DNA of 64,000 nt from Deltaproteobacteria bacterium. Its GTDB lineage: Bacteria > Myxococcota_A > Polyangia > Fen-1088. The translations under genes and the position numbers were made by a program. The DNA is taken from contig JANRKS010000005.1 in assembly GCA_033763315.1 (NCBI GenBank), positions 96,001 through 160,000 of the forward strand, given 5' to 3'. The notes under the pieces are model-generated. The model saw only the letters and a list, made by a program, of their open reading frames with translations, was not told where the DNA came from and did no database searches. Positions 3,590 to 28,001 of the stretch are shown here, in pieces; within the stretch, counting starts at the first letter, position 1; every line of letters begins with the position of its first letter.

Positions 3590-4675
3590 GTGAGCGGACG
3601 CATGAAAGGAGCTTATCAATCTGGGGCCACAGGGGGCGCAACGGGGTTTGGATTCGTTTCCGCCAAGGAGCGCTTGGAAGCGGGCCTGTTTTTCGCCGAC
3701 CTTCTGGGCAGCCCCGCCGTTGGTCAGGCAGAACCCGTGCGGCGTCGCCGCCTTCGCCCGGCGCCATGGCAAGAGGCGCACGAAGCTGCAGAGACACTGG
3801 TGCAGGGCGCTCTCACCGATAGCGAATGGCGTTCGATCATTAACTGCCTGGCTCGGGGCGAGGCAGACGTGGGGTGGCCCTTAACAGCGGATCCAGACAG
3901 GAACGCCTCGTTGCTTGCCGCTCGCTTGTTCTGCGAACGCAACGCTTTGCGCGTGGATAGCCGTCGTGAAGATCCCCTGCTGTGTGTTCTTAACGACGTG
4001 ACAATCAACGATCCACGTGTGCGAGCGCTGGTGCCTCACGTAAACGCGCGTGGGCCGTTGCGGCTGTGGCAGCTTGTGGCCGCCGCTGATCGGCAGCGGC
4101 ACGTGATGCGGCTGCTGATCACCACATACGCGTATCCAGCGAACGCCGCGGCTGGGTTGGTGGGTAACCTGATGGCTGAGTCGGGGGTGATTCCAAGCCG
4201 CGTCGAGGGCAGCACGGCCGCCACACCTTTGCGCGCGCGCAACTTTGCGAATGTGCAAACCGATTTCACCGCCTGGGACGTTATGAACCGGAACGCGGCA
4301 ACCAATGTAGGCCCGCGCTTGCCGGGCATTGGCCTGGCGCAATGGACTTCGGCAGCACGCCGCGCGGGTTTGTTCACGCGCCACTTCCGGAACGTAAACC
4401 TAGGCGCTCAGGTGCTTTTCGATATGGATGCGCAGGTTGATTACTTGGTGTCCGAGCTGCGCGGTGCCGGATTTGCGGCGGTTCAGCGCGTTCTCACGAA
4501 CCCGGCTGTCACGGTGGAACAAGCCAGTGACGAAGTGGTTTATAACTTTGAGATCCCTGGATCTATCTTAAGCGGAGGCGCCAAGCTGCCGCGCACGGCG
4601 GCCCCTGTGCAGGCTGTGTTCATGCAGCGTCGGGCGTTGGGCACCCAAGCCCGCAGCTTCGCTCCTGCCACTTAA
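3590..4675 (+). CDS. Phage tail lysozyme-like (Phage_lysozyme2-type) muramidase with N-terminal extension
   Basis: Motifs AAAGLVGNLMAESG, GIGLAQWT..RR, QVDYLVSEL and ASDEVVYNFE.P. No signal peptide. Start codon uncertain (3590 GTG or 3602 ATG). Confidence 0.75.
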   Translation: MSGRMKGAYQSGATGGATGFGFVSAKERLEAGLFFADLLGSPAVGQAEPVRRRRLRPAPWQEAHEAAETLVQGALTDSEWRSIINCLARGEADVGWPLTADPDRNASLLAARLFCERNALRVDSRREDPLLCVLNDVTINDPRVRALVPHVNARGPLRLWQLVAAADRQRHVMRLLITTYAYPANAAAGLVGNLMAESGVIPSRVEGSTAATPLRARNFANVQTDFTAWDVMNRNAATNVGPRLPGIGLAQWTSAARRAGLFTRHFRNVNLGAQVLFDMDAQVDYLVSELRGAGFAAVQRVLTNPAVTVEQASDEVVYNFEIPGSILSGGAKLPRTAAPVQAVFMQRRALGTQARSFAPAT

Positions 4676-4698
4676 AGCACGACCACGGGAGGGCCGAG

Positions 4699-5439
4699 AT
4701 GGCTTTGCCAATCGAAAGTGCTCGCCTGCTGGATTTCATTGGCGGCGCGGACTTGGCTGTGGTGTTCATGTCGCTGCACCCGGTGCATGCGTTTAACGAA
4801 TGCCTGTGTGAACACTTCGTTGAACAGCAAGGCAAGCGTGTGACATTTGGCGTGGTGAATTTACGCGACCTCGTCACAACGCCCAATGCGCCGCTGCCGT
4901 TTTTGCATCAAAGCCTGCGCGCGTGTGGCGTGCCGAGTGCGTTCGGTGTGCTTCCTGGCTATTGGTTGTTTAGCGAAGGCGCGCTTTTGGCATGGAACTC
5001 GGGGCTTCCGCGCGCCGTCGATGCAGGCTCCATCGCGCGCGGCTCTTGGTTGGCGGCGGTGTGGTCGGGCTTCACCGGGCGCACGTCATTCGTGGTTCAG
5101 GCGCTGCACACCGGCGCCAAGGAAGCCACGGCACGCCGCGTGGCCGCGTGCTTTCGTCAGGCGGTGGAAGCGGGCCTTCATGATCAACCACGGGCCAGCG
5201 CCTGGCAGCGTCCGCCCACGCCTGACGAAGAACTTATTCGGGCGTACGAAACCCTGGCCGTTTCTCCGCAAGCCACGGATCAAGAAGTCAAAGAAGCGTG
5301 GCGGCAGCGCCGACGTGAAGTGCATCCCGATCAACACGCCCACGATCCGATCTTGTTCGAACGGTTGAGCCAACGTTCCGCACAGATCAATCACGCACGC
5401 GATGTGATCTTCGCGCACCGGCGGCGTTGGCAAAATTAA
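4699..5439 (+). CDS. J-domain (DnaJ-like) protein with a possible thioredoxin-like N-terminal domain
   Basis: C-terminal AYETLAV...EVKEAWR...VHPD...INHARD is a J domain with the HPD motif. GGGAGG RBS upstream. The stop codon overlaps the convergent gene (TTAA, 5436-5439). Confidence 0.8.
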   Translation: MALPIESARLLDFIGGADLAVVFMSLHPVHAFNECLCEHFVEQQGKRVTFGVVNLRDLVTTPNAPLPFLHQSLRACGVPSAFGVLPGYWLFSEGALLAWNSGLPRAVDAGSIARGSWLAAVWSGFTGRTSFVVQALHTGAKEATARRVAACFRQAVEAGLHDQPRASAWQRPPTPDEELIRAYETLAVSPQATDQEVKEAWRQRRREVHPDQHAHDPILFERLSQRSAQINHARDVIFAHRRRWQN

Positions 5440-27119: not shown

Positions 27120-27137
27120 TCACAAAAGGAAGCTTCA

Positions 27138-28001
27138 ATGAACGCACCGTTAAATGGTTGGACATCGAAAGACATCAGCGACGCCGATCGGTTTGCGGCT
27201 GATTTGTTTGGGACGCCCGTTACAAGGCGCCACAGCTTTGCGCCGCCCGCACGCCCCACCGAAAGCGTCATTGGCACCGACGATCGGTTTCAAGTGCGTG
27301 CGCGCCCGAACTTGCCGTCAACGTTGCTTTACCCGTTCAACACCATCTGTTTGGTTCAGGATGCCGACCCAACCGTGCCGAACGGTTCCGGCTTTTTGAT
27401 TGCACCGCGGGTGATGTTGACCGCAAAGCACGTGTTGGTTGGTTTCGGCCCGCAAACTGTGACACCGGGAGCCGATCTTTCAGCAAGCACGGCTGCCAAC
27501 CAGCGCCCCGCCGCCCCGGCAAGCCAAACCTTGCCCACGGCATCGATAAGGCCGCACGCAACCTTAGATCTGGCGTTAGGCATTTTCCCGGTGGCGTTCA
27601 CGCGCCCCACGCGTTTCATGATGTTGCAGCCGCGTGGCAACATCAACACCGCCACTTTGCTTACTGTGGCTGGTTATCCAAACGTTGGCAACGCAACCAC
27701 GAACGTGGTGGGCACGATGTGGGCGCATTCGAACCGGCTACGCGTAACGAACGTCACGGCCACTCACCTCACGTATCCCATCGATACAACGGTGGGCCAA
27801 AGTGGCAGCCCGCTGTGGTTGTTGGGCAATGATGGCATCCGGCTGGCCCTGGGTGTGCACACCAATGGCGGTTCAGCGAACTCCGGGGTGCGCATCACCT
27901 GTGACGTGATCCGCTGGATAGAACGCGAATGCGCGGCGGCATCTGTTACGGGCCCCGTGGTGGATCAAGTGGCGATGCGGGCCTCTTGCCCCGCGCCTTA
28001 A
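27138..28001 (+). CDS. Trypsin-fold glutamyl endopeptidase (V8/S1B-like)
   Basis: ESVIGTDDR resembles the SVIGSDDR mature N-terminus of Bacillus glutamyl endopeptidase. Motifs LTAKH, DLAL, DTTVGQSGSP and GVH. AAGGAAG RBS. Confidence 0.88.
   Translation: MNAPLNGWTSKDISDADRFAADLFGTPVTRRHSFAPPARPTESVIGTDDRFQVRARPNLPSTLLYPFNTICLVQDADPTVPNGSGFLIAPRVMLTAKHVLVGFGPQTVTPGADLSASTAANQRPAAPASQTLPTASIRPHATLDLALGIFPVAFTRPTRFMMLQPRGNINTATLLTVAGYPNVGNATTNVVGTMWAHSNRLRVTNVTATHLTYPIDTTVGQSGSPLWLLGNDGIRLALGVHTNGGSANSGVRITCDVIRWIERECAAASVTGPVVDQVAMRASCPAP

Follow-up and report, generated by a model that had tools for sequence, protein, structure and literature searches.

Within a stretch of 64,000 nucleotides from a Deltaproteobacteria bacterium (assembly GCA_033763315.1, contig JANRKS010000005.1, positions 96,001 to 160,000 of the forward strand; hereafter the window, numbered from its first letter), three non-homologous enzymes share a tag of about 20 residues near their N-termini. 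The tag exists as a conserved, N-terminal element, and it is genetically coupled to one type of locus whose centre is a TcA-like subunit of the Tc toxins. Judging from where it occurs in sequenced genomes, it is probably a system-specific recruitment tag.

The three copies lie in open reading frames (ORFs) on the plus strand, and their translations match exactly the segments quoted in an earlier annotation of this DNA (the original prediction). The first copy, VSAKERLEAGLFFADLLGSP (3656..3715), belongs to a phage-tail-lysozyme-type muramidase (3602..4675; 357 aa from ATG 3602, with GTG 3590 also possible) that matches Pfam Phage_lysozyme2 (E 1.9e-13) and a PHROG endolysin family (2.8e-9). The second, VSARERRDADLFWNDLWGQT (23253..23312), is found in a protein of 642 aa (23214..25142) in which an N-terminal Cys/His domain without an assigned family precedes an M15-like C-terminal domain. 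The third, WTSKDISDADRFAADLFGTP (27159..27218), belongs to an S1 (V8/Spl-like) serine protease of 287 aa (27138..28001) with His, Asp, and Ser motifs present, a match to Pfam Trypsin_2 (1e-8), and, among PDB sequences, a match to staphylococcal Jep (2.4e-8) and a weak one (0.041) to V8 glutamyl endopeptidase. Counted from the chosen start codons, the invariant Phe of the tag is residue 30, 25, and 19, respectively. The label of CHAP/M15 hydrolase that had been given to the second enzyme holds in part: Peptidase_M15_4 matches below threshold (E 0.0048; 17.9 bits, where the cut-off is 25), and a CHAP domain has no support from any family library or from the search of PDB sequences.

The three tagged window proteins contain no hydrophobic stretch (Kyte-Doolittle mean of at least 1.6 over 19 residues) and therefore no h-region of the Sec or Tat type, in agreement with the earlier statement that they lack Sec signals. 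A Tat signal is ruled out on these grounds; the Arg pairs come after the tag and are followed by polar linkers rich in Pro and Ala. A double-glycine leader was also rejected, as no C39 or ABC exporter is conserved with the locus, the MacB/HlyD genes of the window (49.9-53.4 kb) not having been compared in other genomes.

By themselves, the three window copies make a modest statistical case. Both the pattern first proposed and a looser one match only these three sites in a six-frame translation of the whole 7.63-Mb genome, a test that is circular when a regular expression is applied to its own three sites; leave-one-out profiles, each built from two copies, recovered the lysozyme copy (E 0.013) and neither of the others. 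An independent profile was built from six copies of the motif in two other genomes and searched against 72,348 stop-to-stop ORFs of at least 60 aa from the window genome. It placed the window proteins at ranks 1-3 (E 1.9e-5, 1.1e-4, and 3.1e-4), with rank 4 at E 0.016, and a nine-copy profile found no further protein of this genome better than E 0.44. In the window genome, the tag is confined to the TcA locus, and the proposal that the motif links the two ends of this locus in a single system is supported.

When 1.84 billion cluster-representative proteins were searched exhaustively with a profile, 92 representatives matched at E<=1e-3, while a word-indexed search with the tag alignment gave 12 proteins only, eight already known and four new. 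The core F-x-x-[DEASG]-L-x-G begins within the first 60 residues in 91 of the 92 (median Phe position 23, range 10-52), on many unrelated domains, so that the proposal of a modular N-terminal element common to non-homologous enzymes is upheld; together with the independent profile, these placements exclude chance similarity. The sole match that is not N-terminal, P0055, is taken as a false positive, as its repeats are internal and the protein is lectin-like and unrelated: it is a eukaryote-like C-type-lectin protein with seven repeats, DDRFYSDLL(A/T)STPPTTEVES, that resemble the tag core. Tandem tags, with at least two copies within the first 130 residues, occur in 22 of the 92. The consensus from column frequencies is V-S-A-R-E-R-R-E-A-D-L-F-F-A-D-L-M-G, with Ala (99%) and Asp/Glu (97%) directly before Leu-Phe. 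Usually the tag is followed by Pro and basic residues and then by a variable linker. The Arg cluster that had been described behind the motif does stand behind all three window copies; across the family Arg is the commonest residue at positions +11 to +13 from Phe (41, 27, and 25%), a frequent feature and not a defining one.

Conservation in orthologues, which had also been anticipated, was found. Six DUF2272-type homologues (42-50% identity) share nine invariant columns out of the 13 between R17 and G29; the 8-60 residues after the tag are gap-rich and unconserved, and conservation returns at the catalytic domain. Furthermore, the lysozyme orthologue in one genome of the same class (G174; 55% identity) retains the tag. 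Curated Pfam-A 2025 models leave the N-terminus uncovered in all tag proteins scanned (3 from the window, 13 from the loci, and 53 from the library), and no NCBIfam 20.0 model covers the tag in the window proteins.

The domains attached to the tag appear, from their family matches, to be mostly peptidoglycan hydrolases or binders. Of the library members, 50 (excluding P0055) are 250 aa or longer, and in these Pfam identifies DUF2272 (4), Peptidase_M15_4 (4), Glyco_hydro_25 (2), and OmpA (2), along with single cases of Amidase_3, LD-carboxypeptidase S66, PG_binding_1, Glyco_hydro_108, M23, VanY, Trypsin_2, Hemopexin, Metallophos, and ACR_tran; the other members are without a Pfam family. Some tagged proteins carry a wall-binding Pfam domain only and no recognized catalytic one (OmpA in 2 of the 50; L034:6152-7393). 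Many have lengths of 600-1858 aa, the largest reaching 1367-1858 aa.

The protein encoded at 20830..23196 (+; 789 aa from ATG; Pfam PG_binding_1 3.5e-5) is untagged in the window, and homologues of it do bear the tag, namely one in the related genome G011 (57% identity, with a 3D domain) and the library proteins P0056 and P0066. Before its ATG (20719-20830, +), the reading frame contains QPDASLLWEHTMA. Aligned with the G011 homologue, this segment falls in register with that protein's tag, RADRFAADLFGE, but no longer has the invariant Phe, Leu, and Gly, and it may be a decayed tag. If this gene and the divergent TcA gene are each given their longest ORF, the two overlap at 20719-20732, and therefore at least one of the two true starts is internal. 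P0056, P0066, and P0042 are large tagged chains that unite domains split in the window between this ORF and ORF 23214-25142: an N-terminal 'W-x-VVA-x-PG' domain, a transglycosylase-like part, and the Cys/His domain and M15-like end, the latter two being those seen in the second tagged enzyme. Such an architecture indicates probable domain shuffling or gene fission within the tag family.

The gene at the centre of the locus is an ORF of 3231 aa on the minus strand (11037..20732; start probably internal, e.g. ATG 20714). Its Pfam matches (TcA_TcB_BD 1.6e-99, ABC_toxin_N 2.6e-47, Neuraminidase 1.3e-28, and PA14 1.3e-14) are those of a TcA-like subunit with the pore as well as the TcB-binding domain, and it is the sole TcA of the window genome. 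The original prediction had compared the system to an extracellular contractile injection system (eCIS) or an encapsulin. As a system type this analogy fails: in 30 window ORFs scanned with Pfam, which leave ORFs 55182-58983 and 60637-63998 outside the scan, there are no families of sheath, tube, baseplate, AAA+ loader, type VI secretion system (T6SS), or encapsulin shell (HK97-fold). By its gene content the locus is not an eCIS.

Five accessory ORFs, all on the minus strand, lie directly downstream of TcA, where TcB and TcC normally stand; none has a family in Pfam, NCBIfam, or PHROGs. The nearest to TcA, in the usual place of TcB, encodes 424 aa with a long low-complexity linker and a conserved C-terminal domain (9728..11002), and it is followed by a helical protein of 161 aa (9227..9712) and three paralogues of 424 aa (7896..9170), 335 aa (6816..7823), and 304 aa (5905..6819); all five belong to the core set. 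At the N-terminus of the 424-aa paralogue (8970-9170, -), an acidic repeat of SDESDEAF(D/E) type occurs about six times. That these repeats might attract the basic residues behind the tag by their charge is pure speculation, and the ESM Atlas gave no usable match for this protein. The 304-aa paralogue is predicted to form a long coiled coil with a C-terminal beta domain (AlphaFold2 (AF2) mean confidence, pLDDT, 70.6). For this model the best Foldseek matches, to phage tailspike C-terminal domains, are not significant (E 2.6e-3, TM 0.19). The ORF itself is conserved in five other genomes (G011, G061, G174, G227, and G276) and in metagenome loci.

Next to the accessory genes stands a J-protein of 246 aa (4699..5439, +; Pfam DnaJ 6e-9), composed of a thioredoxin-fold domain, a helical linker, and a J domain. 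Its HPD motif (H209-P210-D211) is invariant in 11 of 11 aligned homologues, as in a J-domain co-chaperone (Hsp40 class C). The N-terminal domain is a predicted thioredoxin fold without a conserved CxxC (AF2 pLDDT 80.3), and Foldseek relates the model to thioredoxins, ERp29, Wind, and YbbN (E ~1e-3, probability 1.0). Complex prediction from alignments of the J-protein and the tag region gave scores of 0.01 and 0.00, a result of 'no answer' that is evidence for neither side. Between the second and third tagged genes, an untagged, cytoplasmic S8 subtilase of 652 aa (25161..27119, +; Pfam Peptidase_S8 5.1e-32) has intact Asp, His, and Ser motifs; its best NCBIfam matches, CspBA, CspC, and mycosin, are all far below cut-offs.

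The same arrangement of genes is found in other genomes. A TcA is present in 5 of 61 genomes of relatives, and one of these, from another genus of the same family (G011), has a syntenic locus with identities of 58% for TcA, 46% for the J-protein, 67% for S8, and 57% for the PG_binding protein. All five accessory genes are kept in this locus; homologues of the three tagged window enzymes are missing from it. All three of its tag ORFs flank TcA, and they encode a PG_binding_1 and 3D protein of 1367 aa, an S8 subtilase, and a beta-lactamase-like protein. A further ORF of 435 aa, divergent from TcA in this genome (L015:8850-10154, -), opens with the tag-like DGDDRFLVDLTDGP, which has one extra residue before Gly and was unscored by the profile. 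The TcA loci of two other genera of the family (G034 and G024) have no tag, and nothing in the G034 TcAs matches the clade-specific TcA residues ~1-450 and ~1030-1500.

When the J-protein was sought in 185,579 species genomes, the matches were limited to G011 and an 'uncultured Nannocystaceae' metagenome-assembled genome (MAG), G061. Here, three consecutive tagged genes behind S8 encode a DUF2272 protein, a protein-arginine deiminase (1.5e-86), and a PETase-like hydrolase of 1301 aa, and on contig C97 a tagged PhoD-like gene is divergent from TcA. Four tag genes of this genome lie on TcA locus contigs and seven on other contigs, including those for M15_4 and OmpA-type proteins, and all of the tags are N-terminal. 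As in G011, the tagged locus proteins have linkers rich in Pro and Ala behind the tag.

In a survey of 401 sampled genomes of the class (tag threshold E<=1e-4), the tag was found in six and in none of the other 395. The full-length J-protein (E<=6e-76; next best 3e-20) occurs in exactly these six, the S8 subtilase is present in all six loci (56-67% identical in the five other genomes), and tag genes flank TcA in every one of them. In G174, G227, and G276, the TcA stands on the same contig with the same core genes and two to five tag genes beside it. These results agree with the suggestion that further matches in this proteome and in related genomes would be N-terminal, on lytic enzymes, and linked to the same locus type. 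In a tree of 14 TcAs (C-terminal ~900 residues), the eight from tag or J-protein loci form one clade with 100/100 support and a long branch, separate from the TcB-linked TcAs of the same genomes. All of the genomes are draft MAGs. J-protein genes were also located in 11 short metagenome loci (1.4-10.7 kb), which establish linkage of TcA, the J-protein, and accessory genes only. A variant order is seen in three (L042:2118-4598, L044:1406-4837, and L045:2588-5170), where TcA is followed by a protein of 827-1144 aa (...SELFDAAIHPE...), the J-protein, and one accessory paralogue, with the other accessory genes absent in between.

What accompanies the TcA in these loci differs from a complete Tc complex. 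The six tag-type loci are all without an SpvB/TcB match, and neither TcB nor TcC is encoded with their TcA; full-length SpvB/TcB genes adjoin other TcA copies in three of the genomes (G174, G227, and G276). The payload is not an autoproteolytically released C-terminus of TcC, and the candidate payloads are separate, N-terminally tagged ORFs. Canonical TcB/TcC was also not found elsewhere in the window genome (G000), which is 91% complete, so that genome-wide absence is not proven. The SpvB matches of this genome are partial, with weak TcdB_midN and no TcdB_midC, and fall in two unlinked, lipoprotein-like FG-GAP/RHS giants of ~3200 aa; G011 likewise has partial SpvB matches only, in unlinked giant proteins. 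The two giants of the window genome (C19:512522-522187, + and C10:10434-19985, +) combine a lipoprotein-like signal peptide with an FG-GAP-like N-terminal part and RHS/YD repeats, differ in their C-termini, and look like teneurin- or Rhs-like polymorphic toxins unlinked to TcA. With 23 SpvB-family and five TcA_TcB_BD matches, the 11.5-Mb genome G276 has an unusually large Tc/Rhs arsenal.

Different models can be proposed for what recruitment by the tag achieves. We tentatively favour docking of folded wall-degrading enzymes onto the TcA particle over their translocation as cargo, while regarding the case for it as somewhat short of even. Components without export signals would meet in the cytoplasm of the producer. 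There the tag, folded as a short amphipathic helix, might dock the enzymes through flexible linkers on the TcA pentamer or on its coiled-coil, fibre-like accessory proteins, and the J-protein and the S8 protease may have roles in assembly and maturation. After release, the tethered hydrolases and wall-binding modules would open and hold the wall of the target cell, which would let the TcA channel reach and perforate the membrane, the cocoon-less TcA acting as an open pore; open pores of TcA without cocoon are mentioned in PMC6868009. The nature of the target, whether bacterial prey or the producer's own wall, is suggested solely by the types of enzyme.

Several features lead to this preference. 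Some tagged partners bind the wall only and have no recognized catalytic domain, and the tagged proteins of 1367-1858 aa far exceed the limit for natural Tc cargo, given as ~35 kDa in PMC6868009. Avidity on a pentamer would be served by tandem tags and tethering by linkers rich in Pro and Ala, and the coiled coil with a small beta head predicted for accessory ORF 5905-6819 would be in keeping with a docking site. By analogy, the chitinase Chi2 of the YenTc toxin provides a possible precedent. PMC6486591 describes how chitinases Chi1 and Chi2 decorate the TcA (YenA1/YenA2) of Yersinia entomophaga, with the N-terminal domain of Chi2 (residues 1-91) predicted to bind a YenA1 insertion on the TcA shell. 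As in YenTc, hydrolase genes flank tcA, and their enzymes have no role as TcC cargo and would attack or bind a polysaccharide barrier of the target. YenTc differs in having two fixed chitinases with a docking domain of ~90 residues, whereas a tag of ~20 residues is borne here by dozens of unrelated enzymes; its substrate is chitin and not peptidoglycan; and it has TcB/TcC, whereas the loci described here have none and contain extra core genes (J-protein, S8, and the five accessory genes).

Other observations weigh against docking or against the breadth of the coupling. The strong conservation of the TcB-binding domain in TcA argues that something still docks atop the channel, and the accessory genes stand exactly in the place of TcB-TcC, as expected if the cargo module had been replaced and not lost. 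A dedicated J-domain co-chaperone suggests unfolding that depends on Hsp70, which would suit translocation better than decoration. An isoelectric point (pI) of at least 8 was calculated for 15 of 19 tagged proteins against 45% of an ORF background (p 0.003; the background is crude), which agrees with the charge rule for Tc cargo (pI>=8) in PMC6868009; this point is weak either way because a basic pI is also usual for wall hydrolases. In addition, the six tag genomes fall in three related families, so that the co-occurrence does not represent six independent events, and the 11 metagenome loci gave no tag match at E<0.5.

These genes and charges are what a translocation signal would lead one to expect, and this alternative, which we consider rather unlikely, is the best placed of those that compete with docking. 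The tag would then pick free-standing effectors as cargo for the TcA channel, in place of the fused C-terminal toxin of TcC. DnaK, brought in by the J-protein, would keep the effectors unfolded, and on the TcB-binding domain the five accessory proteins would take the place of the TcB-TcC cocoon. Threading through the channel would carry the effectors into the target, for instance past the outer membrane of a Gram-negative prey cell to the periplasm, the site of action of peptidoglycan hydrolases, with S8 removing the tag. Enzymes that act in the periplasm do dominate the family; the six loci lack SpvB/TcB although TcB adjoins other TcAs in three of these genomes; the J-domain HPD is invariant; and in eCIS and the Photorhabdus virulence cassettes (PVC), payload signals are as a rule N-terminal and paired with an unfoldase (PMC9054023 and PMC11495950). 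It is harder to reconcile threading with the size of many tagged proteins, with those that have a wall-binding domain and no recognized toxic activity, and with tandem tags, which are unusual in threading signals. There is also no evident energy source or holding cage outside the producer, and no immunity-like genes were recognized beside the effectors, for which no systematic search was made.

According to PMC9054023, PMC11495950, and PMC10097599, eCIS/PVC payloads have N-terminal signal peptides that work with the AAA+ ATPase Pvc15. The likeness lies in a short, Sec-independent N-terminal element that is portable between unrelated payloads, in payload genes beside the machine, and in a dedicated chaperone or unfoldase-type partner encoded in the locus. 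The loci described here differ in that they have no phage-tail-like genes and their machine would be a TcA pentamer. In addition, their candidate helper belongs to the J-domain proteins and not to the AAA+ ATPases, and the tag core is sharply conserved. With classical Tc toxins (PMC6868009 and PMC7861908), the loci share the TcA domain set (ABC_toxin_N, neuraminidase-like, pore, and TcB-binding), the lack of signal peptides, and a polymorphic payload. The payload of these toxins is fused to the RHS cocoon as the C-terminus of TcC and is directed at eukaryotic cytosolic proteins, whereas here it would come from separate genes with an N-terminal tag and the enzymes appear to aim at the bacterial cell wall. 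We found no description in the literature of a TcA locus without TcB/TcC and with tagged enzymes, and the supplementary tables of PMC7861908 could list such loci.

Cargo effectors of the T6SS have N-terminal markers (MIX and FIX) and adaptor chaperones, and in the cellulosome enzymes are tethered by dockerin-cohesin pairs. A marker common to the N-termini of diverse antibacterial enzymes, with orphan effector genes among them, recalls MIX/FIX, although there are no T6SS genes in the locus; many enzymes tethered modularly to one scaffold by a short module and a flexible linker recall the cellulosome. A dockerin as such was rejected, as Pfam finds no Dockerin family in any tag protein scanned.

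An explanation in which the enzymes are exported or released by a route unrelated to TcA (e.g. outer-membrane vesicles or non-classical secretion), with the TcA linkage reflecting co-regulation only, or in which the similarity arose by chance or composition, seems quite improbable. It would accommodate the 7 of 11 tag genes of G061 that lie away from the TcA locus, the resemblance of the enzymes to typical secreted predatory hydrolases, and, for chance, the internal repeats of P0055. The independent profile test and the N-terminal placements exclude chance, and the absence of the tag from the 395 other genomes of the class and the presence of tag genes beside TcA in all six genomes speak against an unrelated route.

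Csp subtilases activate the cortex hydrolase pro-SleC in clostridial spores. By extension, the tag could be a propeptide only, an N-terminal leader that S8 removes to activate zymogens, with no role in recruitment to TcA. This would fit the retention and identity of S8 in all six loci, its closeness to CspBA and CspC (far below cut-off), and the basic residues often present behind the tag; in the window S1 protease, VIGTDDR at residue 44, closely behind the tag region, which we take to be a V8-like mature N-terminus, would imply the loss of the first ~43 residues. As a complete account it is very improbable, since inhibition of more than 15 unrelated folds by one 13-residue core is implausible, tags also occur in tandem and on proteins with a binding domain as their only Pfam domain, and the strict coupling to the TcA and J-protein clade is left unexplained. 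Cleavage and recruitment are not exclusive and may well coexist.

As known so far, Tc toxins are ABC complexes that are insecticidal or directed at a host, with the payload fixed inside the RHS cocoon. The tag points to a so far undescribed way for Tc-like syringes to recruit enzymes. Sequence alone defines a distinct TcA clade in soil myxobacteria of predatory type and Polyangia type, a conserved set of partner genes that have no family, and a tag with invariant positions (Ala-Asp, Phe, Leu, and Gly) by which at least 92 clusters, mostly of peptidoglycan-directed proteins, can be recognized. The boldest possibility, and one we regard as unlikely, is a new Tc nanomachine in which a TcA without TcB-TcC would carry free-standing, interchangeable antibacterial effectors picked by the tag, loaded by the J-protein/Hsp70 and the five accessory proteins, and delivered across the prey envelope. 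If true, it would be the first antibacterial Tc system, with the first sequence-defined cargo signal of any Tc toxin. It is now directly testable what brings enzymes to a Tc particle, whether antibacterial Tc systems exist, and which functions the J-protein and the five accessory proteins have, and the tag is a simple search handle with which to annotate otherwise unlabelled lytic enzymes in soil metagenomes.

Other genes of the window are of interest in their own right. At 36932-39247 (-), a PhoX alkaline phosphatase (2.7e-63) has an N-terminal segment of collagen-triple-helix repeats. At 31448-35004 (+), a DUF1592/DUF1588/DUF1585 gene (PSD4, PSCyt3, PSD2) is paired with a DUF1552 (HXXSHH) gene, a pairing that is typical of Planctomycetota and Myxococcota.

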